This document shows, piece by piece, positions 13,259 through 44,163 of a stretch of 64,000 nucleotides of DNA; the stretch's first letter is position 1; each line of letters begins with the position of its first letter. Source of the stretch: Octopus vulgaris. Its lineage: Eukaryota. The DNA lies in NCBI GenBank assembly GCA_951406725.2, contig OX597831.1:744001-808000 (forward strand), given 5' to 3'. Both the position numbers and the translations under genes were made by a program. The notes beneath the pieces are model-generated. The model saw nothing but the letters and a program-made list of their open reading frames with translations. It had not been told where the DNA came from and did no database searches.

Positions 13259-16200
13259 CATTTGGGTGTGTGTGCATGTGAGTGTGTTTATATACACAAA
13301 ACCAAAATATTTTTAATTGTTTAGTCAGAAGAGGAAGAGCAGTAGCTATGTTTTTACAAGGCCTCTGAAACTGTTGGAAGAAGGAAGGGAGCCATTATGC
13401 CCACCACCCTGAAACAGACTCTACCAAAGCTACCAAGGGCTAAGTAGCTGCCTTAGATATCCCTCCAGTCACATCCCACAGTATTAAAAAGAAATACTTG
13501 AGGAACAGATTGGATAATGTACTCCTAGATACTTTTAGCTACAAAGTAAAAGATGTCATTGTCATAGACAAAAGGTATTTGGCCATTGGTCCACTCAGAC
13601 AATGAGAAGATGGTGATAGATAACTCCACTGACGTCTCCAAGACTACAGCACCGATGATGACAATGACAACAACGATGACTACCACCACCACCATCACCA
13701 CTATCACCACCACCACTATTTCACTATAGAAAGTGTTCATTATTCACACTAAACCTTACCCAAACAAGTTTGACAAATTTCTGTTTGTCACTGGCTGTCG
13801 GATACTCCCAGTCAATGTCCAAACCATCGAAATTGTGGTGTCTTAGGAAGTAAACCGCTTGAGATGCAAACATCTTCCTTGACCTCTTTGTTGATGCCAA
13901 ACTTCTGAAGTTTAAACTTCCTTCGTTGTACCCTCCGACGGATAGGACCAACTTCAAATCATTATTTTTATTTTTCAGATCGGAAATCTTCTGGTACCTT
14001 AAGAAAAATAGAAAAAAAAAAGGAAAACAAAAAGGGAATAAGAAATCCCGGAAGAACCTGTATCTATATAATCTACTTAATGTATGTCTAAATGAGATAT
14101 TTATCTATGTATCAAAAAGCTAGAAGCTGCAGTTTTTCATCTGGGGAAGAAATCTCTTTATAGACTCAATGCATTAAAAAACATGATATACTTCAGAGAT
14201 AAGTGAATTGAAATCACCCTTGAAACGACCATAAGAATGGCTTTTTTTTGCTGTCATAATGGTTTGTCAATGTCATGTACTTGTGTTAATTACAAAATGA
14301 GGTTAAATCAGCTTGTTTGAAGTATATAAGGACAGTGTATAATCTATATACTAGTTTGCAATGTTGCCACATAAACAGAATAAAATTTGAGTAATGCCAT
14401 AGAAGCAGGTCTGGAGTAAAATCTAATCTATCTAACATACATTATATATGCATGTTATATTAAAAGAAAGTGGGGAGAGGCATTGAGTAGTATAGTTCTG
14501 GATGTACAAAAAATGCAGGATGGTCTTGGCTGTGGATATAGGCTAAGGTACCTTAGTCTATATCCACAAGAACATCACCTAACTGATTGGTATGGAGTCA
14601 CTGACCAACACACTCCAAACTGTCTCACAGATCTGTTGTATCACTGCTGTCTGTCTCGTTCCACCTCTATCCAGCCTGTCTGACTCAGTGACCTTGGCTG
14701 GGACATCTTTGATCATAGGCATGGCTGCTGTTACACCATGATGCTAGGTGATAGCCTAGACAAGCTTGACGATCGTCTAGTGTGTGCCAAACAAATCTTG
14801 AACCACTTGGATGAAATGCCTTGTTGTATTTTTCCAGCCCTTTGCATTCTGAGTTCAAATCCTCACATAACCTTCTTGGATGGTAGACTTCACCTTGGGT
14901 GGTAGACATAATCTTGGGCGGTAGACCTTATGTGCCTTTAGCAGAAACCACTCTGTTGCAACATTTGGGCCAGGTTTCTAATTTGAGCATACCTCCTTCT
15001 CTTCTTCTCCCTTCCTAATCTCTTAATCTTACACAATGTAAGCAAGGCCTAGGACACTGAAAGGGCAAAGGGTTGTGCACTGTTGAACTAGTCTAGGATG
15101 CTGGAGGGGCAAAAGGGGTGCACATTATAAGTCTGGCCTAGGCCACTGAAGTGGTAAAGAGGGGGCACATTATAGAACTGGCCTAGAATGCCAAATACCA
15201 TGATAATCATTGGTCTACTCTATCAGGATTGACCTACAGCTAATCAAAAACATTGAAGACTACACACACACACAGACACACACACACACACAGGTGTGTT
15301 TGCGTGCGCACACGCAGAGGATAAATGTTAGTGTAAAGTAGCAGTGAGACTACTTACATAAGCACATCATTGTCTTCAATTGGTGCAAGTTTATTGTTGA
15401 CCAGTTTTGCAAATGCAAAGTGAATGTGTGAACACAGATTTGGAGCAATATTGGCTGGGGTGAATTTTGCCTGACCCATTCGGTACTGAGACCAATTTGT
15501 GTAGTAACACACACGGCGGTAGCTGGTGGCAGCAACTGGAAAACAAGAAAACAGGAATACTTGATTATATTAATATGTAATCTTTCATCTTAACTCCATC
15601 TTTTCCTTCCCTTTCCTCTCATTCATTCCTCTTTACCATCATCCCTCCCACTCTTTCATCACTCTTGTAAGAACTGAAAAATGTCAAGACCACTGGCCTT
15701 AACTCCTGAATGAGATTGACCTGGATGATGGACACAGTACAGCAATGACACATAATGGAGAGCTTTCAGTGACTTTGAAAAATTAAAAACAACAGTTCAG
15801 TGATCTGTCATGTCAAGTGGCTGCTCATATAAAATTTGTTGCTATTTAACCCCTGGTCAGTCCTGATTGAATATATTGGGTCCCATATATAATGCGGTAT
15901 TTTTATTTGCATGAACTACAAGTTGGAGGGGAACAAGATAAACTACCTGCGTCAACTTGCTATAATTTTACCTTCTCTTTATTCTTAGTGCAAGTTTTTT
16001 TCATTTTTTCAAAGCTATAATGGAAGTAATAAAGGAGTATATTCAGCATATTTTGCTTTATGAGTTCAATAAAGGCAACAACACAACAGAAAGTGTGAGG
16101 AATATTAATGCAGTGTATGGGGATCAGACAATAAGTGTAAGCCAGTGTCAACGGTGGTTCCAGAAACTACAGCCTAGAAGATGAGCCTCATCCTGGAAGA

Positions 16201-16412
16201 TCTGTAGAATTTGACAAGGACAAACCCTGGTGGAACAAAATCCCATTGTAACTGTTGAGGAAACTAGTATAGAAGCTTAGGTTTGATCATTCAACCATTC
16301 ACCGACACTTGCGTGCCATCGGAAAAGTCAGCAAATTGGGTGATATTATATACTCACGTAGTTGCCCGAAAGCCATCAGTAGAATGGTGGTGAATGTAAT
16401 CATTGAGCACAT
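717..16412 (-). CDS. Secreted glycoside hydrolase family 18 chitinase (chitotriosidase/AMCase-like), complete spliced CDS, 9 coding exons, 389 aa, no CBM14
   Basis: join(complement) 16358-16412, 15358-15535, 13760-13997, 11976-12100, 10752-10878, 9438-9623, 6221-6337, 1677-1804, 717-732 = 1170 nt, all GT-AG, phases compatible. Protein: [37 protein letters not shown]...LSVGGY...[11 protein letters not shown]...MAYDFHGPW...GLATYGR...VPY...WIGYDD...[15 protein letters not shown]...LMSETRS*. Confidence 0.95.
906..1327 (-). mobile_element. Putative solo LTR in last chitinase intron
   Basis: TGT...ACA termini, flanks cagga/caggt (5-bp TSD, 1 mismatch), GC-richer body, AATAAA on minus strand. Confidence 0.55.
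1677..1804 (-). CDS. Chitinase coding exon 8 ([42 protein letters not shown])
   Basis: ttttag acceptor, gtaagt donor, GGxxxWxLDxDDF motif. Confidence 0.95.
1903..2220 (-). mobile_element. Interspersed retroposon family with AGGAAGGGCATCCAG core and (GAT)n tail; further copies ~3060-3350(+), 3385-3700(-), 55487-55950(-)
   Basis: Recurrent catcatcgtttaacgtccg...ctacagctggatgcccttcctaacgccaacc across copies. Confidence 0.75.
4121..4342 (+). mobile_element. tRNA-headed SINE family A (Meta-type central domain); other copies ~6665-6893(+), 23208-23430(-), 24568-24760(+), 26815-27120(-), 27881-28082(+), 30160-30310(-), 41430-41630(-), 54355-54560(+), 63300-64000(-, several)
   Basis: A-box GAGCTGGCAGAA, B-box GAGTTCAAATT, core GCCTTTCATCCTTTCGGGGTCGATAAA; many near-identical copies in window. 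Confidence 0.9.
4922..5476 (+). mobile_element. Internally deleted mariner element
   Basis: TIRs ttgggttttccggaaagtt / aactgtccggacaacccaa, TA flanks, transposase remnant [28 protein letters not shown]. Confidence 0.9.
6221..6337 (-). CDS. Chitinase coding exon 7 ([39 protein letters not shown])
   Basis: ctttag acceptor, gtaatt donor, VPY..WIGYDD motif. Absent from ORF track. Confidence 0.95.
7692..8110 (+). mobile_element. tRNA-headed CORE-type SINE family B with internal microsatellite; other copies ~2476-2800(-), 7450-7600(-), 8232-8620(-), 10105-10330(-), 46855-47190(-), 47745-48293(-), 52965-53150(-), 53208-53632(+), 57840-58152(+), 58170-58510(+)
   Basis: A-box GTGGCTGTGTGG, B-box GGTTCAGTCCC, CORE-like GCACCTTGGGCAAGTGTCT; repeated across window. 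Confidence 0.9.
8146..8189 (+). ncRNA. Hammerhead-like motif, U3:A8 core variant, weak stem I
   Basis: TTGATAA-GTG(ccaaca)CAC-GAAACTC(ttggacctt)GAGTC. Confidence 0.4.
9438..9623 (-). CDS. Chitinase coding exon 6 ([13 protein letters not shown]...GLATYGRGF...GFLAYFE)
   Basis: tag acceptor, gtaaat donor, start of chitinase insertion domain. Confidence 0.96.
10752..10878 (-). CDS. Chitinase coding exon 5 ([16 protein letters not shown]...QLNV)
   Basis: MxYDFHGxW motif; cag acceptor, gtaata donor. Confidence 0.96.
11190..11507 (-). mobile_element. tRNA-headed SINE family C with V-domain-like 3' part
   Basis: Head tggcccagtggttagggcagcggactc...ggtttcgattccc; CTGCGATGGACTGACGTCCCGTCCAG segment; (CAT)n tail. 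Confidence 0.75.
11976..12100 (-). CDS. Chitinase coding exon 4 ([10 protein letters not shown]...[24 protein letters not shown])
   Basis: tag acceptor, gtaagt donor, typical GH18 LLLTxAVxAG..IDxGYD. Absent from ORF track. Confidence 0.95.
12820..13045 (+). mobile_element. RTE-clade LINE fragment
   Basis: [25 protein letters not shown]...RNEASMI*WMC. Confidence 0.8.
13760..13997 (-). CDS. Chitinase coding exon 3 (catalytic [11 protein letters not shown])
   Basis: KLVLSVGGY and DxxDxDxE motifs; aag acceptor, gtaagg donor. Confidence 0.97.
15358..15535 (-). CDS. Chitinase coding exon 2 ([18 protein letters not shown]...CSHIHFAFA...EDNDVLM)
   Basis: ttttccag acceptor, gtaagt donor, GH18 N-terminal motif [11 protein letters not shown]. 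Reading frame differs from the ORF-track call. Confidence 0.95.
15876..16342 (+). mobile_element. Mariner 5' fragment (TIR plus N-terminal HTH), in chitinase intron
   Basis: TA-ttggg TIR start; from 16020 [34 protein letters not shown]...CQRWFQK. Confidence 0.85.
16358..16412 (-). CDS. Chitinase coding exon 1 (signal peptide [18 protein letters not shown])
   Basis: Polypyrimidine acceptor tttgtttcaag directly before ATG, hydrophobic 18 codons + 1 nt, donor gtgagt. Phase 1 matches next exon (C|TT). Confidence 0.85.
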
Positions 16413-16495
16413 CTTGAAACAAAGACAAAACAACATGAAAGTATGATATTAATATAGATATAAATACATATGTACATATATACATGTATATATAC

Positions 16496-16560
<65 letters not shown>

Positions 16561-16561
<1 letters not shown>

Positions 16562-17194
16562 GGTTAAGTAATTGAGATTCAAGTGAATTCTAAAGAATTC
16601 ACATGAATATGGTCCTTAACTAGGATGCACCGGAAATCTATATGGTGTTAACCATACGACAAGTGGGGTGATTACAAATAGGAAAAAAGCAACAAGAATG
16701 GATTAAAATCTCGGTACGATCGTTTTGTACGAGGACATCTTTAATAAGCTACAAAAAATGCAGTGAATACAGATGGCTCGTACTCGTCAGCCGAAAAAAC
16801 ATCAGAGAATTCCCAAACATCAAAAGGGGTAGATACAAAAGAGGTTGTAAGATTAACTGCATTGAAGAAAGTTCGATTCATGGAGATCCGATGAAAGGTT
16901 TTAAACCTATAGAATTTATGCATGTCTACATATGAGCTATATGTAGACATGCATAAATTCTATAGGTTTAAAACCTTTCATCGGATCTCCATGAATCGAA
17001 CTTTCTTCAATGCAGCTAATCTTACAACCTCTTTTGTATCTACCCCTTTTGATGTTTGGGAATTCTCTGATGTTTTTTCGGCTGACGAGTACGAGCCATC
17101 TGTATTCACTGCATTTTTTGTAGCTTATTAAAGATGTCCTCGTACGAAACGATCGTACCGAGATTTTAATCCATTCTTGTTGCTTTTTTCCTAT
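16561..17194. mobile_element. Fold-back PLE-derived cassette: 256-bp inverted arms (16678-16933 / 16939-17194) plus one-sided tail, in (TA)n
   Basis: Near-perfect palindrome with 5-nt loop gagct; each arm carries a hammerhead motif; flanked by TA microsatellites. Confidence 0.85.
17076..17163 (+). ncRNA. Type I hammerhead ribozyme (intact core)
   Basis: Stem I TTTCGG/CCGAGA; CTGACGA 17082-17088; stem II GTACGAG/CTCGTAC; GAAAC-GATC-GTA, predicted cleavage after 17157. Confidence 0.85.
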
Positions 17195-17229
17195 ATATAT
17201 ATATATATACATGTATATATATATATTTT

Positions 17230-18639
17230 ATGTATGTATATATAATAATAGGGAATATAATTCTAAAACTTACAGGGAAAAATTCAATTTAACAATTTTA
17301 AATAAAATTTCACAATATATAATATATGTATATAATTTAGAGAAAAACCACTATTAAACAATTCAATAAAGAAAGATGTTATTCACATCATATAGAAAAC
17401 ATATACTATAAAAAAAACTTATTTTAAATCAATAAAGTACAATAAATAGTAAATACTAGTAAAAAGACTACGCACATTTCATGGCTATATTTTCAAATAG
17501 ATAATAATAATAAAATCAATTCAATTCAAAATTAAATCGAACTAAAATTAATTCTATTTAAAAATATAGTCACTCATCAGGTCTACGATAATAAATAATA
17601 AAAAAAAAAAAAATTAAATAAATGTACTTATCTTAACTTATGCTAATTATCAAATAAATATATAAAAAATACGTATATTAACTATAAACAATCGAAAAGC
17701 ATTTAACAATATTTCTTAAAATAAAAATATAACTTATCTTGTCGAAGGATTTTGGTTAACTAACAATTTAAACGTAAAACGTCGAAGTTAGCGTTTATAA
17801 GAAATATAAGAAATATATCGTGTGAAAATATGGCGTAAATAGAATTTATAGAAGAAATCGATAAAAATATGTATTTAAGCTATTAAAATTACAAATGTAT
17901 TTTAGCTGTAAGAACAAGGAAAAAAAATTAAACTCTAATATACTATTAACTGGAAAAATTATAAAGTCTTAATAATTTAAATACTAAATACGTGAAATAC
18001 ATAATATAATAAACATAAATTAAGCTAAAATTCTATAATTTAATCTATTTTCATTAATTAATTAATTTTATAAACATCTAATTTTTAACTTATTCTAATT
18101 ATGTAATATAGACTATATAATCACGTGCTAATTTTTACACATTTTACTACTACAAATTATAACTATTACAATTAGTAACATAAAACATATAGACACAAAT
18201 TAGCTAAACTTATATAAGTAATTTAATTCATGTCTACATTTAATTTTTCGTTCGTCGAGAATATTAAACCAAATTATTATTATAATGATATTTCCATAAA
18301 TTCGTTAGTACATCATAAACAAAAATTACTACCTATTCGATATGATTTTGCCTTACAAACTATCTCCCAATTTAAATTGTACTTAATATTTTTAGATTTT
18401 AGTTCCCATATATATTTACTAAGGTCAGTAGAATTAATTAAATTTTTATTCTTAAAAGAATTCATGAGCCATCCGTAATTTAATTTTATTAGAAGTCGAC
18501 CCTATGTAAATGCATTTAAATTATAACCATTCCTATTATTATCATCAATCAAAGTCACTACACATTTATATACTACATCATCGAAATTACATTATTAAAT
18601 TTACATTTAGTGTTATTTCTACACGTACAATTAATTATA

Positions 18640-18701
<62 letters not shown>

Positions 18702-18960
18702 TGATTTGTTTTTGTAAAACTTATTAAAAGAAGAAATAATGTTATCTACATTATTAGTTGTAGAATAACCAACTCCAAAATTATTACTAGAAAAAATATT
18801 ATTATATCTTTATTATTTCTAGTGAATACTTCAATTATAATTAAAATCTCTTTAATAATGTTTGTTTTAACTTGAGCACCATAAGGAATAATTAACCAAA
18901 TTTTGTTCTTATTATTATTATACTTATTTTTTATAGTATTAAATTTATTATTATCATTTA
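17230..18960 (-). mobile_element. Penelope-like element 3' fragment (linker, GIY-YIG endonuclease, 3' region), decayed
   Basis: Minus-strand translations IWLIIPYGAQVKTNII...GYSTTNNVDNII; NVVYKC...YIGST; YIWELK; WEIVCKAKSY..C; KCRH. Confidence 0.8.
17465..17584 (-). ncRNA. Hammerhead motif in PLE 3' region (long stem II, CpG-decayed)
   Basis: AGAC-CTGATGA-gtgactatattt...aaatatagccat-GAAATGTGCGTA-GTCT. Confidence 0.65.
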
Positions 18961-19081
18961 CTACAGCATCCAGGATATGCTCTCCGGTTTGCTCTGGTTA
19001 AAACTTTCAACCCATGCCAGCATGGTAAACGAACTTTCAGTAATGATGATGATGATTATGACGATGTATGTATGCATATAC

Positions 19082-19129
<48 letters not shown>

Positions 19130-19339
19130 ATAGGGCAATAAGAAATTATTATTACCAGTGGCCAAGCACAAAAACGAATTAGTCATTAGACTATATATTA
19201 TTCACATAGAAATACAATAAGAGGCTTCCAAATAGGAAAGCCTTGTGCTAGAAAGAACTGTAGAAAAAACTCAAACCACCAAATAAGGATAAATTTTCGA
19301 AAGGAATGAAAATTAAAAACGTTTACCATCTCATTTATT

Positions 19340-19408
19340 TCCCAGACCATGGTTTCTAACTATTTCCATCAAAAAAATATTTGCTGAAGGCCAGTTTCAT
19401 CAGTGGGA
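19340..19408 (-). ncRNA. Type I hammerhead ribozyme in a ~370-bp pLTR-like segment (19126-19495) between TA runs
   Basis: TCCCA-CTGATGA-AACTG...TAGTTA-GAAAC-CATG-GTC-TGGGA; predicted cleavage between 19345 and 19344. Confidence 0.8.
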
Positions 19409-19491
19409 CAGCCTTTCAATTTCAAATACACACACAGCCAGATCCACATGTAAAACTAACTGCTTGTATATTCTAACTTTTCAGACCACTT

Positions 19492-19545
<54 letters not shown>

Positions 19546-19546
<1 letters not shown>

Positions 19547-20832
19547 GAGGCGACTTCAATAAGAAATGCCCCTGATCCACTTGAAGTTGTTCGATCTAGC
19601 TGAAATTTTGCATGTGCACTTATTTATATCTCTATAGATTAAGTGGCAAATTACAGCTCTAAACTAATTGTGGTTTCTGATTTACAGGTGTTTGAACTGA
19701 GTCAAGTGTGAAATGGAGTCTGTTGAATATCGAGCAGTGATCCGGTTTTTGTATTTGAAAGGACGCACACCACGGGAGACTTTTGATGAAATGAAAGTAA
19801 CTTATTGTGATAATGCCCCATCATATGACCTTGTAAAACGCTGGCATCGTGAATTCAAACATGGTTGGAACTCTGTGGAAACAGCTCCCAGATCTGGTCG
19901 CCCCCTTTTGCCATTGATGAGGCATCTGTCCATCAAGTTAAGGCTGCCATTTTGGAAGATCGACGCATAACTATTCGCGAAATAGCCCATGAGGTCAAGA
20001 TTAGTACCGGGTCTGTGGAAACTATCATTCATGACCATTTGCATATGCAAAAGGTGTCTGCCAGATGGATCCCCAGGTTGCTCACATCTTTCCAGAAGCA
20101 AGAACGCGTCGAGTGCTCGAGGATGAATTTGGAGATGTGCCAAGAGGATGAGTCAAAATTTTTCAAAAGACTGATTACACAGGATGAAACCTGGGTCCAT
20201 CACTATGATCCAGAGACCAAAGCCCAGTCAATGCAGTGGAAGCACCGTGACTCCCTCCTCCAAAGAAGGCAAGGGTGCAGCCCTCCGCTGGCAAGGTCAT
20301 GCTCACAGTCTTCTGGGACCAGGACGGAGTAGTGATGACAGATTTCCTGGCAAATGGTGCCACAATTACAGGAGCCTATTATGCTTCACTTTTGAGGAAA
20401 TTAAGAGAAGCTATCAAAATCAAGAGGCGGGGCAAGATCAGCAAAGGCATCCTCCTCCTGCAGGACAACGCTCTGGTCCACAACTCGCGTGTCGCCAGAT
20501 CAGAAGCACAGGCGTGCGGCTATGAACCCCCCCCAACCCCTACTCTTCTGACCTTGCACCTTCTGATTTTCACCTCTTCCCAGCCATGAAGTTGTTTTTG
20601 AAAGGAAAGCGTTTCCCAGATGATGCAGCCTTGATTTCTGAAGTCACGTCGTGGCTGGAGGACCAAGCTGGTGTCTTCTACAGAAACGGTCTTCAGAGCT
20701 GCATCAAACGATGGGAGAAATGCGTAACTCTGGGTGGTTCCTATGTAGAAAAAGACTAATAACTGTGCCAAGTTTCGTTGCTCTACTGCTATGGGAAGTG
20801 GGTCAGGGGCATTACTTATTGAACGCCCCTCG
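19546..20832 (+). mobile_element. Full-length mariner (DD34D-type) element, 1287 bp
   Basis: ~37-bp imperfect TIRs cgagg(c/g)..ttcaataag.aatgcccctga.ccactt, inserted in (TA)n. Confidence 0.95.
19713..20759 (+). pseudogene. Frameshifted mariner transposase
   Basis: MESVEYRAVIRFL..., [32 protein letters not shown] spread over several frames. Confidence 0.92.
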
Positions 20833-21000
20833 TATATATATATATATATTTCGTTTTTGGATTTAGTTTGTAAGGTTCTTTATGTGAGTTCGTGTGTTGA
20901 AGCATATTCTGTTGTGTCTGGGGAGAGCCATTCTCTTTTAGTGCCTTTTAATTTAACACACTCACCAGTAAAATTTCCACTCACTTCCTTCTTCATTTTT

Positions 21001-21037
21001 CTAAAATTTTCGCTGCGTTTTGCAACCTTTTCAATAG
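21001..21037 (-). ncRNA. Minimal hammerhead-like motif, U3:A8 variant, short stem I
   Basis: CTA-TTGAAAA-G-GTTGC(aaaac)GCAGC-GAAAATTT-TAG. Confidence 0.45.
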
Positions 21038-21769
21038 TCTTGACTCTGTCCGTTATTCACACTGCGTTCGTTTTGTTTGTTTGTGCACATGTGTGTGGGT
21101 CAGAGTGTGTGTACATACACATGCATGTATGTATGCATGTATGTATGCATGCATATGTGCATATGCATGTATATATGTGCATATGTATATATATATGTAT
21201 GTGTGTATATTTGTACGTATGTATTCTGCATATTCCTGTGTCTGCTTGTCCGTGTTTGTGTGTTTTTATAAGTGTGTGTTTGTGTGTTTGCATGTGTGTG
21301 TGTTTATGTGTACCTCTGTGTCTTTGTGTGTGTGTGCGTGCGTGTGTGTGTGTGTTTTGCAACTAAGTACTGTGTTTGCATCAATGGATGTTTAAATAGG
21401 AAATATACATAGTAGATATCATACCCCTATACCCACAGTTTATACAGGTAGAGTAGAATAGTTAGGGGGCTATTATGTAGATAGATGTATGTATGTGTGT
21501 GAGTGGGTGTATGTATATATGTATGCACATACGTGTAAGCATATGGATATGAAAGTAAACAGATTAACAAACAGACAGATAGGTACATAGGTTATATGAA
21601 CAGACAAACACACATATATACATACACAAATGAAGACTGAAACACGTGTCCATATATACACACACACACACACACATATAGAGACACACGTCCACACATA
21701 TAGATATACACATCCATACATCCAAATGTACAAACATACATACATGTGCATATATATATATATATATAT

Positions 21770-22094
21770 ACAATTGCAGCGTGGAAGGTGTTTATAAGCC
21801 ATTTAAGAAACACACAAAAGCCGTTCGATTCACTTCAACATTTAAGTTTAATTTGTCAAAATATTTTCGTCGCTAAAATCCGCGACCTGTTCACTGACAA
21901 AGTCCGTGATGCATCAGTGAACAGGTCGCGGATTTTAGCGACGAAAATATTTTGACAAATTAAACTTAAATGTTGAAGTGAATCGAACGGCTTTTGTGTG
22001 TTTCTTAAATGGCTTATAAACACCTTCCACGCTGCAATTGTTTTCGTTTCAGCACACGATCTCAGATCAAATTACTTGCTATGCGAGTACATCT

Positions 22095-22098
<4 letters not shown>
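21770..22098. mobile_element. Fold-back PLE-like cassette: 128-bp inverted arms (21770-21897 / 21914-22041) plus one-sided tail, in (TA)n
   Basis: Arms appear identical by eye, 16-nt spacer, hammerhead-like motif at inner ends. Confidence 0.8.
21852..21901 (-). ncRNA. Hammerhead-like ribozyme with G3:C8 swapped core
   Basis: TTTGTCA-GTGAACA-G-GTCGC(ggatttta)GCGAC-GAAA-ATAT-TT-TGACAAA: 7-bp stem I, 5-bp stem II, palindromic loop III. Confidence 0.6.
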
Positions 22099-22134
<36 letters not shown>

Positions 22135-22665
22135 CAATGCATACATACATACATACCCCCCCACACACACATATATAAATAAAAGAACAGAGATTTAGAA
22201 TTTGGGCCGGTACCTTACTATCACTCTGATACAATCCAGGTTCTGGCTAACCGCGTCAAACGATAGGGAAGACAAGATTGCTTAAGGTATATAATCACGT
22301 AGTATGTAACTCTAAAGGTAAATTCTGAGTCCATTTGTCCATTTTATACAGCATACCGAGTATATCTCCAAAACATCATACTAAAAATAGAGAACAATAC
22401 ATCTTCGGAACCCGTTTATTGCGATAAATTCACAATACATTCATGTTAAATTTAATGTAAATGTAGTGTGAATTATTGTAATAAACAGGTTTTAAGGATG
22501 TACAATTAATTCTCCATTCTTGATGTCTTGAATGAACATACACACACATATATAAGTGTGTGTGTGTGTGTGTGTATGTGTGTGTGTGTGAATGTGTGTG
22601 CATGTGTGTGAATATTCAAGACATCAAAGTAACTCTTCGTTTTTTTACCATTGGGTGCTTTATTG

Positions 22666-23020
22666 TTACCTCATCCTTAGCGAAGGCGGAGGTATATTTG
22701 TCAGTCGTGCTTGTTTGTCTGTGGACAAGATATCTCAAGAACCGTCGAATGGATTCAGATGAAACTTTCAGGGACGTTTAATCTTGCGACTGGCACAAAT
22801 TGATTAGATTTTGGGATCAATTTGGTACCGGACAAAGATTCTGGATTATTTTTCTGCTTTTTTTAAATTTAATTTTTGAGAGTGGTCGGGTTCATTTTTA
22901 GTATTCTCGTTTGTGAGAGCAGTCGAGTTTATTTCAGATATTCTCATCTTGAAAATCATCTCTGGCTAATTATTGAGAGGATGTTGATGAGGAGGTTTGC
23001 ACTCTCTGAGTGCTCTTGTT
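22666..23020 (+). mobile_element. Non-autonomous Helentron/DINE-1-like (HINE) element
   Basis: 5' ttacctc..ggcggaggt sub-TIR, gtttgtctgt segment, 3' ggaggtttgcactctctgagtgc hairpin followed by ttgtt. Confidence 0.65.
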
Positions 23021-23559
23021 TTAATATATATTTATATTCGATTTTTGATAATATCTTGAGATATCTCCCTAATTTTGTAGTCACTGCTGTTCTTTAGAAA
23101 CAACAATATATATGTGTGTGTGTGTGTATATATGTATATGTGTATACATATACATATTATATCTATATATGTGTGTAGATAAATGGATATGTAAGTAAAA
23201 AGATATGTTTCTTTATTACCCACAAGGAGCTAAACGCAGAGGGGACAAACAAGGACAGACAAACGGATTAAGTCGATTATATCATCCCCAGTGCGTAACT
23301 GGTACTTAATTTATCGACCCCAAAAGGATGAACGGCAAAATCGACCTCGACGGAATTTGAACTCAGAACATAACGGCAGACGAAATACGGCTACGCCTTT
23401 CGCCCGGCGTGCTAACGGTTCTGCCAGCTCAGACGAGCACGCACACGCATACACAAACACAAATGAAGACTGAAACACCTGACCATATTCACACCTGCAC
23501 ACTTCACACACTTACTGACTCTATTCTTACCGTTCAGATTTTCCCCATCATTATACATA

Positions 23560-24560
23560 CTAGTTTCTATTCTACTAGATACTTTTCTATTCTTAGTTAC
23601 TGTTTTTTTTATTGTTATATTTTTTATTCTTAATTATAATATGATTATTATGTGCATTTTTATGAGGTTTATATGCCAGGTTAGACGGGCTATTGGTTTT
23701 GCTTTCGCTTTTATTATTTTTATTATATTAAGCGGATTTTAAACTTTCTGAGTTAAGGAATGCAATCTCCCGATTGCCTCCCGCCTTCAATAAAGCAGAG
23801 TTATAGAAGCGAGAATATGAGTTAAATATATTAGCCGATAATTGTGCAATTCTCTTTGAAATTCCTGTTACTATTGATATTATTATACCTAGTAACTACG
23901 TCTGATTTCCTATAGGGGTAATATAACCCAAAGTTTATATTTAGTGTAGAATCTAAGAAGTTAACTACCTTAATGCAGTGCTTTTCAAACTTTTTGCTGG
24001 AGCGGAACCCCAAGGAAACATTCCACTGGCTTGAGGAACCCCTGTGCAATAATTTAATAGTCTTATGCACACATATCTGCACAGGAGAATTAAAAATTAC
24101 TGCCGATTTTAGCAGTTTTGTAACTTCTTGCGGAACCCCTGGACTGTACTGGCGGAACCCTGGTTGAAAACCACTGCTTTAATGTCATATTCAAAAATGA
24201 GCCCTAGGTTAAAACTTTTGAAGAATTTTCTGATTTTCTTCCGCATTCTTTCTATTACGGTTTTACTATTACTAGGTATAATGAATAATGCATCATCCCT
24301 ATAGAGAACTCAAGGAATTCATTACTAAGACATTTTTGGGGATATGCTCTCCAAGTAAATTCGTATTAGGGGAAAAAATTCTGCATAGAGTTTGATACTC
24401 ACCTGATATTGTCTGAGTGTGCAAATTAATTCTTCCTAACAAGGTGCCTCAATTTAGTATCTAATTCAACTGAATCTCTATTATAATTTTTTAATATATT
24501 ATAAAATTTTATTGATTTGCCATATAACGGCATTATTGCTTACTGGTCACTAATATTATT
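23560..24560 (-). mobile_element. Penelope-like reverse transcriptase fragment, interrupted by hAT MITE
   Basis: Minus-strand LYRDDALF...ERMRKKIRKFFK..L...VVNFLDSTLN..G.YYPYRK..Y..INSN. Confidence 0.8.
23976..24176 (-). mobile_element. hAT-type MITE (copy 1)
   Basis: CAGTG..TTTCAA TIRs; 8-bp TSD ccttaatg/ctttaatg. Confidence 0.85.
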
Positions 24561-24762
24561 GTTATTTAGGCGACGAGCTGGCAGAAACGTTAGCACACCG
24601 GGCGATATGCTTAGCAGTATATCGTCTGTCTTTATGTTCTGAGTTCAAATTCTGCCAAGGTCGACTTTGCCTTTCATCCTTTCTGGGGTTGATCTAATCG
24701 ACTGGCTCCCTTCCCCAAAATTTCGGGCCTTGTGCCTTGAGTAAAAACGAATATTATTGATA

Positions 24763-25151
24763 ATAAATCTCTGAACGAGGAATAAACAGTAACTGCACGA
24801 CAATGTGAGGTATATTTGCCATCTCAACATGGCTAACCACTAAGGGTGGGTGTTACTGTAGTTGTAGCCCCAGGAGAGCATCTCCTCCAGCTGGCTATAG
24901 GCACACTTTCTGTGTCCTAAGGTATTTGCAAAGGGAGGTCATCCTTCCCTCGTCAACCTAAGTGATACGCACGGGCTGCAGTTTCTAGGTATTGACCCGT
25001 CATCAGTGTACGACAATCACCGGTTTTCGATGAAAGGGGTCCCAATGCAAATACTTATATCCTTTTTTCAGTAGTTCTCCTGGGGCTACAAGCTACAGTC
25101 ACACCCACCCTTAGTGGTTAGCCATGTTGAGATGGCAAATATACCTCACAT
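24763..25151. mobile_element. Inverted-arm PLE-like insertion with 15-bp target duplication
   Basis: ~75-bp arms 24803-24877 / 25076-25151; cgaatattattgata at 24748-24762 and 25152-25166; decayed hammerhead in spacer. Confidence 0.75.
24968..25012 (-). ncRNA. Degenerate type I hammerhead
   Basis: CGTACA-CTGATGA-CGGGT(caat)ACCTA-GAAAC-TGCA-GCC-CGTGCG (expected GTC reads GCC). Confidence 0.55.
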
Positions 25152-25194
25152 CGAATATTATTGATATTATCATTAATTATTTATAATAATAATA

Positions 25195-25640
25195 ATAGGA
25201 ACTTCACCATTCAAACTGACAGAAAGATAGATGCAAATAGGCCAGACATTATATTGAAAGACTTCAGACAAAAATCATGTCTCCTCCTTGATATGACTAT
25301 CAATATAAATGTATCTGTCAAGACCTACCAAAAATTGAGCAAGTATAAAGATCTTGAAATAGAAATTAGTAAAAAGTGGAACCTGAAGACTAAATTAATA
25401 CCTGTTGGCATAGGTGCCCTGGGGATGATAGCAAAAGGGGCTGATTGCTACCTAGCTCAGATATCAGGGAACCCCAAAATGGCAAAAATTCAAAAGATAG
25501 TGCTCATGGGAACTGTCCATATCCTACGTAAAATACTGACTAATTTTCTTATGGTTTCTTAAACATTCTCTGGGTGAGACTTGGAGCCAACTTGTACAAA
25601 TGCAAAGCAAGAGTCAAACATAAAATAACAATAATAATAA
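25195..25640 (+). mobile_element. R4/Dong-clade LINE 3' fragment (restriction-like endonuclease)
   Basis: IQTDRKIDANRPDII...KLSKYKDL...W....IPVGIGALG; (AAT)n tail. Confidence 0.85.
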
Positions 25641-28187: not shown

Positions 28188-28609
28188 GGCAATCTTTCGT
28201 CTCTAGTAGACCTTTCCGTCGATTTCCGTAAAAAAATTTTTTTTTTTACATATGGGCTTGCGGGAACTTTTGAAGTAATGAGAGCGAAAGAGACTAAGAG
28301 AAAGCGATTGTATGATGAGGGAAGTTCTTTTGAAGTTACCATGCATGTGAAGCATTGATGTATATGTGTGTGTGTGTGTGTTTGATGGGGTGTGGGAGAC
28401 AGACAGTATGTTGTGTAAGTGAAGTGCTTCTGTTAGTGTGTGTGAAGAGACAGAGTAATGTGTGAAAGAAGGAGATAACTGAAATTTTTTAGTCGGTGTA
28501 TGTGTATATGTATGTATATTACTTCAAAAGTTCCCGCAAGCCCATATGTAAAAAAAAAAAATTTTTTACGGAAATCGACGGAAAGGTCTACTAGAGACGA
28601 AAGATCGCC
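28188..28609. mobile_element. MITE with ~90-bp TIRs, Merlin-like
   Basis: GGC(a/g)ATCTTTCG termini; perfect 8-bp TSD acacaaca. Confidence 0.85.
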
Positions 28610-35988: not shown

Positions 35989-38900
35989 TCACGTAATAAG
36001 TGTCACACATACATCTTCCTACATACATATATAACTCCCCTATATGTACATATATTCAAATGAACCAAATACCCCACCTCACGTAATAAGTGTCACACAT
36101 GCATCTACCTACATACACATATACATATACAACTCCCCTATATGTACATATATTCAAATGAACCAAATACCCCACCTCACGTAATAAGTGTCACACATGC
36201 ATCTACCTACATACACATATACATATATAACTCCCTTATATGTACATATATTCAAATGAACCAAATACCCCACCTCACGTAATAAGTGTCACACATACAT
36301 CTACCTACATACACATATACATATACAACTCCCCTATATGTACATATATTCAAATGAACCAAATACCCCACCTCACGTAATAAGTGTCACACATGCATCT
36401 ACCTACATACACATATACATATACAACTCCCTTATATGTACATACATTCAAATGAACCAAATACCCCACCTCACGTAATAAGTGTCACACATGCATCTAC
36501 CTACATACACATATACATATATAACTCCCTTATATGTACATATATTCAAATGAACCAAATACCCCACCTCACGTAATCAGTGTCACACATACATCTACCT
36601 ACATACACATATACATATACAACTCCCTTATATGTACATATATTCAAATGAACCAAATACCCCACCTCACGTAATAAGTGTCACACATGCATCTACCTAC
36701 ATACACATATACATATACAACTCCCTTATATGTACATATATTCAAATGAACCAAATACCCCACCTCACGTAATAAGTGTCACACATACATCTACCTACAT
36801 ACACATATACATATATAACTCCCTTATATGTACATATATTCAAATGAACCAAATACCCCACCTCACGTAATCAGTGTCACACATACATCTACCTACATAC
36901 ACATACATATACAACTCCCTTATATGTACATATATTCAAATGAACCAAATACCCCACCTCACGTAATAAGTGTCACACATGCATCTACCTACATACACAT
37001 ATACATATACAACTCCCTTATATGTACATATATTCAAATGAACCAAATACCCCACCTCACGTAATAAGTGTCACACATACATCTACCTACATACACATAT
37101 ACATATACAACTCCCTTATATGTACATATATTCAAATGAACCAAATACCCCACCTCACGTAATCAGTGTCACACATACATCTACCTACATACACATATAC
37201 ATATACAACTCCCTTATATGTACATATATTCAAATGAACCAAATACCCCACCTCACGTAATAAGTGTCACACATACATCTACCTACATACACATATACAT
37301 ATACAACTCCCTTATATGTACATATATTCAAATGAACCAAATACCCCACCTCACGTAATAAGTGTCACACATGCATCTACCTACATACACATATACATAT
37401 ACAACTCCCTTATATGTACATATATTCAAATGAACCAAATACCCCACCTCACGTAATCAGTGTCACACATACATCTACCTACATACACATACATATACAA
37501 CTCCCTTATATGTACATATATTCAAATGAACCAAATACCCCACCTCACGTAATCAGTGTCACACATACATCTACCTACATACACATATACATATACAACT
37601 CCCTTATATGTACATATATTCAAATGAACCAAATACCCCACCTCACGTAATAAGTGTCACACATGCATCTACCTACATACACATATACATATATAACTCC
37701 CTTATATGTACATGCATTCAAATGAACCAAATACCCCACCTCACGTAATAAGTGTCACACATGCATCTACCTACATACACATACATATACAACTCCCTTA
37801 TATGTACATATATTCAAATGAACCAAATACCCCACCTCACGTAATAAGTGTCACACATGCATCTACCTACATACACATATACATATACAACTCCCTAATA
37901 TGTACATATATTCAAATGAACCAAATACCCCACCTCACGTAATCAGTGTCACACATACATCTACCTACATACACACATATACATATATAACTCCCCTATA
38001 TGTACATATATTCAAATGAACCAAATACCCCACCTCACGTAATAAGTGTCACACATACATCTACCTACATACACATATACATATACAACTCCCTTATATG
38101 TACATATATTCAAATGAACCAAATACCCCACCTCACGTAATAAGTGTCACACATGCATCTACCTACATACACATATACATATACAACTCCCCTATATGTA
38201 CATATATTCAAATGAACCAAATACCCCACCTCACGTAATAAGTGTCACACATACATCTACCTACATACACATATACATATACAACTCCCCTATATGTACA
38301 TGCATTCAAATGAACCAAATACCCCACCTCACGTAATAAGTGTCACACATGCATCTACCTACATACACATATACATATACAACTCCCCTATATGTACATG
38401 CATTCAAATGAACCAAATACCCCACCTCACGTAATAAGTGTCACACATGCATCTACCTACATACACATATACATATACAACTCCCTTATATGTACATGCA
38501 TTCAAATGAACCAAATACCCCACCTCACGTAATCAGTGTCACACATACATCTACCTACATACACATATACATATACAACTCCCCTATATGTACATATATT
38601 CAAATGAACCAAATACCCCACCTCACGTAATAAGTGTCACACATGCATCTACCTACATACACATATACATATACAACTCCCTTATATGTACATGCATTCA
38701 AATGAACCAAATACCCCACCTCACGTAATCAGTGTCACACATACATCTACCTACATACACATATACATATACAACTCCCTTATATGTACATGCATTCAAA
38801 TGAACCAAATACCCCACCTCACGTAATCAGTGTCACACATACATCTACCTACATACACATATACATATACAACTCCCCTATATGTACATGCATTCAAATG

Positions 38901-40790
38901 AACCAAATACCCCACCTCACGTAATAGTGTCACACATGCATCTACCTACATACACATATACATATACAACTCCCTATATGTACATCATTCAAATGAACCC
39001 CACCTCACGTAATAAGTGTCACACATGCATCTACCTACATACACATATACATATACAACTCCCTTATATGTACATGCATTCAAATGAACCAAATACCCCA
39101 CCTTATCATGTCACGAACCAAATCACCTAATAAGTGTCACACATGCATCTACCTACATACACATATACATATATAACTCCCTTATATGTACATATATTCA
39201 AATGAACCAAATACCCCACCTCACGTAATAAGTGTCACACATGCATCTACCTACATACACATATACATATACAACACCCCTATATGTACATGCATTCAAA
39301 TGAACCAAATACCCCACCTCACGTAATAAGTGTCACACATGCATCTACCTACATACACATATACATATATAACTCCCCTATATGTACATATATTCAAATG
39401 AACCAAATACCCCACCTCACGTAATAAGTGTCACACATGCATCTACCTACATACACATATACATATATAACTCCCCTATATGTACATATATTCAAATGAA
39501 CCAAATACCCCACCTCACGTAATAAGTGTCACACATGCATCTACCTACATACACATATACATATATAACTCCCTTATATGTACATATATTCAAATGAACC
39601 AAATACCCCACCTCACGTAATAAGTGTCACACATGCATCTACCTACATACACATATACATATATAACTCCCCTATATGTACATATATTCAAATGAACCAA
39701 ATACCCCACCTCACGTAATAAGTGTCACACATGCATCTACCTACATACACATATACATATATAACTCCCTTATATGTACATATATTCAAATGAACCAAAT
39801 ACCCCACCTCACGTAATAAGTGTCACACATACATCTACCTACATACACATATACATATATAACTCCCTTATATGTACATATATTCAAATGAACCAAATAC
39901 CCCACCTCACGTAATAAGTGTCACACATGCATCTACCTACATACACATATACATATATAACTCCCTTATATGTACATATATTCAAATGAACCAAATACCC
40001 CACCTCACGTAATAAGTGTCACACATGCATCTACCTACATACACATATACATATATAACTCCCTTATATGTACATATATTCAAATGAACCAAATACCCCA
40101 CCTCACGTAATAAGTGTCACACATGCATCTACCTACATACACATATACATATATAACTCCCTTATATGTACATGCATTCAAATGAACCAAATACCCCACC
40201 TCACGTAATCAGTGTCACACATGCATCTACCTACATACACATATACATATATAACTCCCCTATATGTACATATATTCAAATGAACCAAATACCCCACCTC
40301 ACGTAATAAGTGTCACACATGCATCTACCTACATACACATATACATATATAACTCCCCTATATGTACATATATTCAAATGAACCAAATACCCCACCTCAC
40401 GTAATAAGTGTCACACATGCATCTACCTACATACACATATACATATATAACTCCCTTATATGTACATATATTCAAATGAACCAAATACCCCACCTCACGT
40501 AATAAGTGTCACACATGCATCTACCTACATACACATATACATATATAACTCCCTTATATGTACATATATTCAAATGAACCAAATACCCCACCTCACGTAA
40601 TAAGTGTCACACATGCATCTACCTACATACACATATACATATACAACTCCCTTATATGTACATACATTCAAATGAACCAAATACCCCACCTCACGTAATA
40701 AGTGTCACACATGCATCTACCTACATACACATATACATATATAACTCCCCTATATGTACATATATTCAAATGAACCAAATACCGCACCTC
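35989..40790. repeat. Tandem array, 98-bp unit, ~49 copies
   Basis: Unit cctcacgtaataagtgtcacacatgcatctacctacatacacatatacatatacaactcccctatatgtacatatattcaaatgaaccaaatacccca; period 98 (36061 to 36159). Confidence 0.98.
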
Positions 40791-42529: not shown

Positions 42530-44163
42530 CGAGGTTGGGCTGAAAAGTTCAGGGGCTAAGTTTATTTTCCAACATAGTCTCCCTCGGTCTTGCAGTGCAT
42601 GGAATTTTTGAACGGCCTGGGCGACCGAGGCCGTAGGTACTCGGAGTGCACAGGCAGTCCAATATGGCCTCCGTAGGTGGCTGCGGAGGTAATAGAACAT
42701 AAAAATTCCGTCAAGGGTCACAGCGACCTTTGATAAGAAAGAGTTTGCTTTCCTCTTCACGGGCCCCGACTTGTCGGTACAGAGTTGTCTGCAGGCAGCA
42801 AGTCGACTTGCTTGGGGGCTTCGATGAGGAGGATTTATTGATGTGTATTGATATTTTTTGAATTTTTGCATTGATATCTTGATATTTGTATTCGAGGGTT
42901 TGTTGGTCGGTGGGCGCCGACATCCCTCTCATTTTTCTCATTATGTTTTCATTTCATCTCATTTTGTCTACGTCCAGCTTACAAGCTTCTTACTATGTGC
43001 AATGCCCTTGTGGCAAATTATATGAAATAAAGAAGCTATCATCATATTGATAAAAGAAAACCAACAGCAGCAGACATGACGTCATCATCACTGTGATACT
43101 GGTTCCCAGCCAAGTGCTTTTTCATCTTGTGGAGAAGATGATAGTCTGATGGGACGAAATCAGGAGAATAGGAAGCCTGATCGACCAGTTCAAAGCCACA
43201 GTCACGCACAGCAGCAACTGAAAGCAAAGACTCGTGTGCTGGAGCATTGTCCTGATGAAACAAGATTCCTTTCGTCAGATTTCCTGGCTGCTTGGTCGTG
43301 ACAGACTTCCGTAACTGCCTCAGAAAGTTGGCATAGTCCTCTCCATTGATGATGTGGCCCTTTTGAAGATAGTCAAATACAATACCTTTTGCATCCCCAA
43401 AATTGAGGTCATCACCTTTCTTGCGTGTGAAACGACCTTGGACTTCTCTGGAGCAGGTGAGGAGTGGTGTTTCCACTGCATGGATTGTCCCTTTGTTTCT
43501 GGCTCAAAGTGATGGAGTCAACACTTATCCTGGGTTATGAAACATTGAAGGGAATCAGCTGGATCTGCTTTAAAAAATGACAGATTTTGCCATGGTGTGA
43601 TCAGCTTGGTGCGCCCTTGATTTGCTGTCTGAATTTATGACGTCCACTGAGCAGAAACGTTCGTCATATCACGTTCGTCGTGCAGAATATTGTCAACTCT
43701 CTCACAGGATATGCTTATTAGCATTGGCTATTTGATTTATAGTCATCAATTAGCTTGTCATCCATCAGCATGTGGTGAACATGATCAATGTTTTTCTTGG
43801 TGGTGGCAGTTGTAGGACTTCCAGACGTTGAGTTGCCTTCAAAACTTTCTGTTCCCTCGCAAATTCAGCTGCCCACTTTCGCATTATTGATAAAGCTGGA
43901 ACATCATTCCCTAATGTAGCCACCTTGTCATCATGAATGTCGTTGGGGGCTAAACTCTTTTTTTTTTTTTTTTGCAAGTACTTGATGTCCATTTTCAAAA
44001 GAAGTCGCCACTAGTTACTTTTGAAGCCTTCTTTGAACATTAAGATGTGAGTTTACCCAGAAAGAAACAATGCAGTTGTTAATAAGAAAGGTTGAAATTA
44101 ATACATGAAACATTTCACAGCTCTAGCGTCACTCCTTCATAGTAACTTTTCAGCGAACCCTCG
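42530..44163 (-). mobile_element. Decayed mariner element carrying a non-mariner internal segment
   Basis: TIRs cgagg(tt/gt)..gctgaaaagtt, TA flanks; GILFHQDNAPAH, YSPDFVPSDYHL, C-terminal GDYVGK*. Confidence 0.9.

Follow-up and report, generated by a model that had tools for sequence, protein, structure and literature searches.

Which process placed three hammerhead-bearing inverted repeats within 8.6 kb of the Octopus vulgaris genome, alike in layout and unlike in sequence? A preliminary description of the window (the whole stretch of 64 kb that was analysed) had proposed two origins, recurrent fold-back integration products of Penelope-like elements (PLEs) or retrozyme-like elements specific to this lineage. 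The first proposal was supported: the anatomy of the cassettes, here C1, C2 and C3, is that of the published PLE insertion unit, and other copies of the C1 sequence pass its turn point. With a probability of roughly 0.78, each cassette represents a single insertion of a heavily 5'-truncated, endonuclease-bearing (EN+) PLE, from three families, consisting of head-to-head copies with a one-sided tail. Most likely C1-C3 show a known PLE insertion shape and not a new self-copying RNA element.

Arm alignments and blastn confirmed three dissimilar cassettes with one layout of outward-reading arms and a one-sided tail. The best match among C1, C2 and C3 had an E-value of 0.05, with 10-nt matches. A head-to-head joined inverted copy and a tail outside one arm (117, 57 and 40 nt) were directly observed in all three. 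C1 (16561-17194) starts with the 117-nt tail on its left side (16561-16677, minus strand), which is predicted to form two hairpins (z -4.5). The left arm (16678-16933, minus strand), the outward-reading 3' end of a 5'-truncated element, and the right arm without tail (16939-17194, plus strand) are identical in 254 of 256 positions. Between them the turn point (16930-16938, without strand assignment) is formed by a 4-nt ATAT overlap and a 5-nt spacer belonging to the tail-less right arm. In C2 (21770-22098), the outward-reading arms 21770-21897 and 21914-22041 are identical in 128 of 128 positions; the left arm together with the 16-nt spacer forms a copy without tail (21770-21913, minus strand), and the right arm (plus strand) is followed by a 57-nt tail on the right side (22042-22098, plus strand). 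Both cassettes are flanked on both sides by (TA)n, and C3 (24763-25151) lies in the ATT-rich DNA of a SINE tail between exact 15-bp TSDs (24748-24762 and 25152-25166, plus strand), all as originally described. C3 comprises a 40-nt tail (24763-24802, minus strand), a long copy (24803-25075, minus strand) and a short inverted copy of 76 nt without tail (25076-25151, plus strand); its arms 24803-24877 and 25076-25151 agree in 74 of 76 alignment columns. It is not a tight fold-back, its hammerhead being located inside a spacer of 198 nt that occurs once in the cassette. In C1 and C2 the spacer is part of the arm that lacks a tail; in C3 it is part of the tailed arm. Additional cassette copies were absent elsewhere within the 64-kb window.

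The PLE insertion unit has been described as containing a neighbouring 5'-truncated copy in inverted orientation and a tail at a single end, with a bias for (TA)n (Craig et al. 2021, PMC8557442); tailed pairs of pLTRs in inverted head-to-head orientation, with TSDs of 8-10 bp, were also reported for PLEs (Arkhipova et al. 2013, PMC3846280). As far as these accounts define the EN+ PLE unit, the cassettes share with it the head-to-head inverted 5'-truncated copy, the tail at one end, a short palindrome or overlap at the junction, a target that is either (TA)n or duplicated to a variable length, and a hammerhead close to the 3' end. They differ from it in copies too truncated for an ORF or a direct pLTR and, in C1 and C2, in tails (117 and 57 nt) longer than the 30-40 nt quoted in PMC8557442. 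MITEs and other DNA transposons carry their terminal inverted repeats directly inside a TSD of fixed length. This does not apply to C1-C3, in all of which a tail extends beyond one arm, so the arms are most probably not the terminal repeats of DNA transposons, an origin that the preliminary description had also considered.

Non-LTR retrozymes are, like the cassettes, short and non-coding, carry a type I hammerhead and are thought to depend on PLEs, but the accounts available describe them as head-to-tail tandem repeats giving rise to circular RNA, whereas C1-C3 are joined head-to-head with their motifs on opposite strands (Cervera and de la Pena 2020, PMC7229834; bioRxiv 10.64898/2026.07.22.740005). 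A second copy of C1, C2 or C3 on the same strand was not present within the 64-kb window. Because head-to-tail tandems are missing from the window, the cassettes are not retrozymes. The presence of three units with nearly identical arms inside 8.6 kb would fit transposition of the fold-back unit itself, whether as a retrozyme-like element bearing a ribozyme or as a MITE-like one. We regard this as very improbable in view of the missing head-to-tail repeats, the zero contig depth over the C1 junction at a summed arm depth above 100,000, and the asymmetric ends, unlike those of the symmetric MITE at 28188-28609 (8-bp TSD). The latter inverted repeat was also considered as a fourth member of the group; it was rejected as symmetric, bounded by an 8-bp TSD and free of a hammerhead match.

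The distribution of C1 was followed in public contigs of three runs from two organisms (666, 467 and 36 matching contigs). Two species carry C1 as a multi-copy family. The run X14 was guessed to be an RNA run, which is not proof of transcription. Contig depths are summed values and not copy numbers, and contigs drop rare variants. Across the tail border 16677/16678, the depth rose about twofold in all three runs (89,657 to 221,082; 114,883 to 209,484; 1,195 to 2,513), thus the border recurs in other copies of the family. Among the loose ends listed (17 of 68), three, three and two contigs per run continued past 16933 into parent sequence, and the 5-nt spacer of C1 is the reverse complement of this continuation. 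The depth at the junction (16938-16940) was zero in all three runs, which, given the loss of rare variants in contigs, does not prove a single-copy junction. Since other copies run past the turn point without folding back there, it is not the C1 fold-back unit that spreads. The two expectations of the retrozyme-like proposal, head-to-tail repeats and a fold-back unit with a turn point shared among copies, were thus not seen, the latter for C1 in the contigs of the three runs. The only joint listed for C1 was a skip of 44 nt. The decrease in depth towards the 5' end of C1 was not taken as truncation because the opposite end of the stretch showed an equal edge effect. An artefact of assembly or library fold-back is the least probable explanation of the palindromes: the inverted duplications end at element-internal borders recurring in other copies (C1 contigs), the flanks are unlike on the two sides, the two arms differ from one another in C1 and in C3, and C3 has an exact TSD of 15 bp; the only raw-read run, X22, gave 0 matching reads and is counted neither way.

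The contigs leaving 16933 mostly stopped 14 nt further, one of them in (TA)n, among the loose ends listed (17 of 68), and the parent of C1 is visible for only about 26 nt upstream of the turn point. This stop may correspond to a 5' end that is fixed. In that case the parents would be short, non-autonomous derivatives of PLEs, that of C1 measuring about 390 nt; a PLE protein would mobilize them in trans, and the fold-back would be remade at each insertion. The branch 14 nt upstream was present in all three runs, and non-autonomous PLEs with pLTRs have been described in Chlamydomonas. The right arm of C1 begins with frameshifted C-R-H..K-F codons that weakly resemble the C-terminus of the Hydra-clade endonuclease; in the contigs this remnant is out of frame, and a variant was not listed there at a threshold of at least 2%. 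The open frame of C1 had no match in Pfam, and neither the protein searches with C1 nor the contigs revealed an RT or endonuclease ORF tied to C1-C3. A single match to a repeat protein among 1.84 billion proteins (E 5e-4) was judged spurious. Nothing comparable to the Hydra-clade CRH..KF was seen in the translations of C2 and C3. We nevertheless consider non-autonomous parents unlikely: the longest contig of run X1 continues in letters other than (TA)n, an identical branch would arise if AT microhomology had joined the 5' side to (TA)n, and octopus has many active Penelope families, 30 of them recently active in O. vulgaris according to the literature.

Hammerheads were searched with a relaxed descriptor across the full 64 kb and in 20 shuffled controls. 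All four matches were inside the cassettes and all four had a palindromic helix III; the shuffles gave five other matches and none with a palindrome. All three motifs escaped a strict scan, whose loop limit was short, and were recovered with wider limits. In Rfam nothing reached the gathering score across 16400-25300, and the matches listed from an E-value search (150 of 260) were microRNA-type noise and included no hammerhead. Of the minimal type I hammerhead claimed for each cassette, the palindromic helix III was present in all; the complete canonical motif was restricted to C1 (17076-17163, plus strand; descriptor match and folding, z -3.3), with a 6-bp stem I, CUGACGA, a 7-bp stem II with a 43-nt loop, GAAA, helix III CGAUCG and predicted cleavage after GUA. 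The copy in the left arm lost G12 (G12 to A at 16726); this change is private, as the canonical base accounted for all contig depth in runs X1 and X14 and for 99.7% in X3. The C2 core reads GUGAACA instead of CUGANGA, a swap to G3-C8, with a bulged G, a 5-bp stem II and helix III AUAU; the motif of the left arm has a 7-bp stem I, and the right arm is cut within stem I with 3 bp remaining. The C3 motif (core at 25006) is defective, with helix III CUGCAG, a C at 16.1 and the first pair of stem I broken, and a hammerhead fold was not predicted (z 0.2). The motifs are located 154 (C1), 146 (C2) and 211 nt (C3) from the distal end. The fold-back layout places both hammerhead motifs on opposite strands. 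Metazoan PLEs have been described with minimal hammerheads on opposite strands 100-700 bp apart, and short helix I, long helix II, the bulged base after A9 and palindromic 15.2-16.2 with loop 3 are likewise common to them and the cassettes (Cervera and de la Pena 2014, PMC4209133).

The core variant given in PMC4209133 is U3-A8, in contrast to G3-C8 in C2, a variant invisible to a CUGANGA descriptor. G3-C8 has been given as a rescue mutant from the laboratory (PMC11167929). In the literature searched, the variant survey of Lunse et al. (PMC5785218) lying outside it, natural G3-C8 in PLEs was not found; metagenome contigs gave zero matches to the C2 hammerhead pattern. Pairing of two C1 motifs via helix III is predicted to be favoured by -6.0 kcal/mol over two monomers. 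In the C1 family a linked double change of GATC to AATT retains the helix III palindrome, with depths of 49,234 and 47,209 in X1 and equal depths in X3 and X14, natural evidence for dimer pairing of the hammerhead. Sparing of the core from variation reached only a P of about 0.07. Ribozyme activity is a prediction from folding and the one compensatory change. The hammerhead may be carried along passively with the element's 3' end, with a predicted dimer action via helix III. A more far-reaching and rather unlikely proposal is that octopus harbours short, high-copy, non-coding retroelements derived from the Hydra clade, of about 390 nt with a fixed 5' end and a structured tail of 117 nt, whose RNA dimers, paired via helix III, are reverse-transcribed at both nicks and form a fresh head-to-head pair at each insertion, C2 having a working natural G3-C8 hammerhead.

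For the preferred origin, insertion of truncated EN+ PLEs, a mechanism can be proposed from biochemical work on a PLE protein that in vitro cleaves both strands of ATT, extends each of them and initiates RT at two positions, which set the limits of the tail (PMC11167929). At the octopus locus, both strands of a (TA)n or ATT target would be nicked by the RT-GIY-YIG protein of the element. At one nick, cDNA synthesis would be primed on the element RNA from its distal RT start, giving the tailed arm; at the other, priming would be from the proximal RT start, giving the arm without tail. Both cDNAs would stop early and be joined at their 3' ends by a few bases of microhomology. The protein-coding parent and the joining of two cDNAs are what we infer; the 4-nt overlap in C1 and the parent sequence past its turn point were directly seen. 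With the spacer on the tailed arm in C3 but on the opposite one in the other two cassettes, two separately primed cDNAs fit better than a one-way snap-back. The cassettes are ordinary as PLE scars, yet they are clean minimal cases of the retrotransposition step that gives rise to the inverted copy and the one-sided tail. Spacer placement and the C1 overlap together offer an inexpensive way to tell two-cDNA joining from snap-back self-priming across a genome.

The family of C1 possibly belongs to the Hydra clade. In section 11 and Files S1, S2 and S7 of PMC8557442, this clade is characterized by a (TA)n target and by a type I hammerhead near the 3' end in which CUGANGA is followed by one additional base and helix III is palindromic, all shared with the cassettes; an inverted 5' copy is published there for the Hydra family Penelope-13_HM. 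Octopus bimaculoides has a Hydra family, Hydra-1_Obim, that carries a hammerhead and targets (TA)n (PMC8557442); its listed hammerhead motif is unlike C1-C3 in sequence. Nine short motifs of C1-C3 and one of the neighbouring remnant were unmatched in the supplement of this paper, where line breaks may conceal one; a tenth, a 7-mer, matched unrelated sequence only, and the motifs listed in File S2 included none with a G3-C8 core.

Adjoining C1, a decayed, 5'-truncated Hydra-clade-like PLE (17240-18960, borders approximate, minus strand) was overlooked in the preliminary description. It was recognized by translation and by motifs compared by eye with the published Hydra alignment; translation also ruled out that the AT-rich stretch is a mitochondrial insert. 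The copy is truncated within the thumb, so that the RT motifs RWK and DKT of the clade fall outside it, and ends within the (TA)n array of C1. A frameshifted thumb, linker and GIY-YIG-like remnant (18230-18905, minus strand) presents in three frames and in Hydra order IW..PY, VKTN, CxCX5C, VVY, YIG, LSKYIW.L, CxxC and CRH, without CCHH between VVY and YIG. By eye, this matches the diagnostic endonuclease set of the clade, the CxCX5C linker, a GIY-YIG domain without CCHH and C-terminal CxxC and CxH. Neither Pfam and the ESM Atlas nor either of two homology searches gave a significant match for the endonuclease remnant. The similarity between C1 and this neighbour was not significant when unrestricted (440 of 500 shuffles equally good), and was equalled by 11 of 2000 shuffles when restricted to 60 nt. 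The 3' region of the remnant carries a fifth hammerhead motif (17465-17584, minus strand) with CUGAUGA, a stem II of about 20 bp, a wobble-palindromic helix III and a 4-bp stem I. A Hydra-like remnant with a hammerhead of like kind abutting C1 was counted in favour of the PLE origin.

The three hairpin-shaped cassettes of the preliminary description, C1 (16561-17194), C2 (21770-22098) and C3 (24763-25151), were all present, each with paired inverted arms and a tail on one side only. The arms of C1 (16678-16933 and 16939-17194) were identical at 254 of 256 positions, with a 117-nt tail on the left side. In C2, arms identical at 128/128 positions (21770-21897 and 21914-22041) flanked a 16-nt spacer and the tail of 57 nt was on the right side; in C3, the arms (24803-24877 and 25076-25151) agreed in 74 of 76 columns, with 198 nt between them and a 40-nt tail on the left side. 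C3 was bounded by a 15-bp TSD, confirmed as an exact duplication. Pairwise comparison revealed no resemblance among the cassettes, as had been described by eye, and no additional copy of any of them was found within the 64-kb window. The hammerhead reads outward in each cassette, thus the two arms meet at their 5' ends. The observed features are arms in head-to-head orientation, tails on one side, AT-rich targets and a TSD. The initial observation is correct and well above chance, and an artefactual origin of the palindromes is very unlikely.

This type of insertion is already known for Penelope-like elements (PLEs), and the cassettes are most likely new examples. According to Craig et al. 2021 (PMC8557442), PLE insertions occur at (TA)n targets, are strongly truncated at the 5' end, where a second, inverted and likewise truncated copy frequently adjoins, and carry a tail of 30-40 bp on one end; the tails of C1 and C2 are longer. 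The unusually long C1 tail (16561-16677) folds as two strong hairpins (z -4.5). The same source presents Penelope-13_HM with an inverted copy attached, a hammerhead in Hydra-1_Obim of O. bimaculoides, and Naiads with the same inverted structures and without canonical hammerheads. Inverted pLTRs in head-to-head orientation with tail, TSD and junction palindromes have been reported (Arkhipova et al. 2013, PMC3846280). In O. vulgaris, 190 Penelope-like families constitute 6.8% of the genome, 30 Penelope families being recently active (PMC13282606). We consider C1-C3 to be PLE insertions of the ordinary truncated type, from three octopus families without a match to a published consensus here (probability about 0.78). 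That the parents are instead short non-autonomous elements is less likely; retrozymes, to which the cassettes had been likened, are defined by tandem units (PMC7229834; bioRxiv 10.64898/2026.07.22.740005). A literature search on octopus and hammerhead ribozymes gave no octopus-ribozyme title among the matches listed.

Three runs of public contigs were compared with the tail and left arm of C1 (16561-16940). With 666, 467 and 36 aligned contigs (organisms A, B and A), C1 is a member of a multi-copy family occurring in two species. In 3/3 runs the summed depth was about twofold higher at 16678-16690 than at 16665-16677, therefore the tail border is one of the family and not of the window copy. 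Among the loose ends listed (17/68), at least three, three and two contigs passed 16933, the fold-back point of the window, into other sequence; most stopped 14 nt beyond, and one entered (TA)n. Depth was zero at 16938-16940 in all three runs, in contigs that omit rare variants. The continuation past 16933 opens with the reverse complement of the C1 spacer. The C1 arms therefore meet in a 4-nt overlap (ATAT) within a parent that extends further, and it is the tail-less arm that includes the spacer. C1 thus combines a recurrent tail border with a microhomology junction. Of the alternatives proposed at the outset, fold-back PLE integration products are retained, while transposition of the fold-back unit itself is very unlikely, since C1 contigs pass the turn point into the parent. 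Further loose ends in contigs of two organisms lay at 16656-16663, from C1 subfamilies with an alternative stretch in the tail, and at 16830 and 16869, from relatives matching only part of the arm.

The spacer is on the tail-less arm in C1, according to the contigs, and in C2, where it completes a 7-bp stem I; in C3 it is on the tailed arm. Self-priming has been proposed for head-to-head pLTRs (PMC3846280). A snap-back from the tailed end as origin of the inverted copy predicts a spacer invariably on the tailed arm, as in C3, but C1 and C2 differ. Snap-back therefore fits less well than two separately primed cDNAs, on a basis of three cases only. The PLE protein would nick both strands of the target, one cDNA would be primed from each of two RT starts, and both cDNAs would terminate early and then anneal through a few bases. 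In Frangieh et al. 2024 (PMC11167929), both strands were cleaved at ATT and extended, the tail was delimited by two RT starts, and hammerhead cleavage was dispensable for insertion in vitro. Hammerhead dimerisation as provider of the two templates is speculation.

The type I hammerhead descriptor was relaxed to admit C-G, U-A or G-C as core pair 3-8, and C at position 16.1. It yielded four matches on both strands of the 64 kb, every one inside the cassettes and with a palindromic helix III (4/4); 20 shuffles of the window gave five matches, none palindromic. As the descriptor was composed after inspection of the cassettes, this control measures rarity and is not an unbiased discovery. A minimal type I hammerhead with palindromic loop III had been ascribed to each cassette; the palindromes are present in all, but only C1 has a canonical motif. 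Its right-arm motif folds as expected (z -3.3), and the predicted pairing of two C1 motifs via helix III amounts to -6.0 kcal/mol versus two monomers. The C2 core GUGAACA, a G3-C8 swap with a bulged G, occurs in both arms, at 21894 (-) and 21917 (+); stem I has 7 bp in the left copy, and the right copy is truncated within it. In C3, position 16.1 is C and the first pair of stem I is broken; no hammerhead fold was predicted. The Rfam search at the gathering score detected none of the motifs. Minimal hammerheads, opposite-strand pairs 100-700 bp apart and a U3-A8 core variant have been described (Cervera and de la Pena 2014, PMC4209133), and C3G/G8C gave partial rescue (PMC11167929). In the C1 family, a linked change at 16718 and 16721 (depths 49,234 and 47,209 in contig run X1, equal depths in runs X3 and X14) converts GATC to AATT and preserves the palindrome of helix III. 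The left-arm G12 loss is specific to the window copy. With this place omitted and loop III treated as free, 0 of 20 variant places fell in 35 core and stem positions against 2.5 expected (P ~0.07), which is only suggestive of a core and stem spared from variation.

Immediately right of C1, and ending in its (TA)n, lies a decayed, Hydra-clade-like PLE at 17240-18960 on the minus strand, which the preliminary description had overlooked. This neighbour has 19% GC, is 5'-truncated, and contains an asparagine-rich (AAT)n linker and an endonuclease remnant, without an inverted copy. Its motifs follow in three frames in the order IW..PY, VKTN, IISSFN, CxCX5C, VVY, YIG, LSKYIW.L, CxxC and CRH, with no CCHH from VVY to YIG. 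Set and order agree with those of the Hydra clade of PLEs (PMC8557442, section 11 and the alignment in its supplement), the endonuclease remnant being identified by eye; Pfam, homology searches and Atlas were blank or uninformative for the protein remnant. A fifth hammerhead motif at 17580, downstream of the endonuclease remnant and ~660 nt past the ORF end, was matched by a wider descriptor, which gave one comparable match in 1 of 20 shuffles. The C1 5' end has C-R-H codons followed by K-F out of frame, a pattern seen nowhere else in the window; the best local match of C1 to the neighbour coincides with the CRH there. This match was non-significant when unrestricted (equalled in 440/500 shuffles) and reached 11/2000 only when restricted post hoc.

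A chitinase exon at 13763-13996 (-) (Pfam GH18) had 90% identity to an Octopus bimaculoides protein, the only one of 57 candidates to reach E <= 1e-20; the cassettes may be intronic in this gene or upstream of it. The surroundings are a mosaic of microsatellites, SINEs and transposon remnants. A frameshifted Tc1/mariner-like transposase copy is located within (TA)n at ~19548-20773, a second remnant at 43042-43503 and another, likely, at ~16000-16400. Adjoining C3 in (TAA)n, ~25190-25560 is presumably a 3' fragment resembling a restriction-like-endonuclease LINE, judged by a motif; the Pfam search of this fragment gave no match. A symmetric MITE-like element at 28188-28609, with 92-nt inverted ends and an 8-bp TSD, had no match to the hammerhead descriptor. 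Strong GC skew (-0.65 to -0.68) extends across 4 kb at 36001-40000, probably a simple-repeat or satellite tract.
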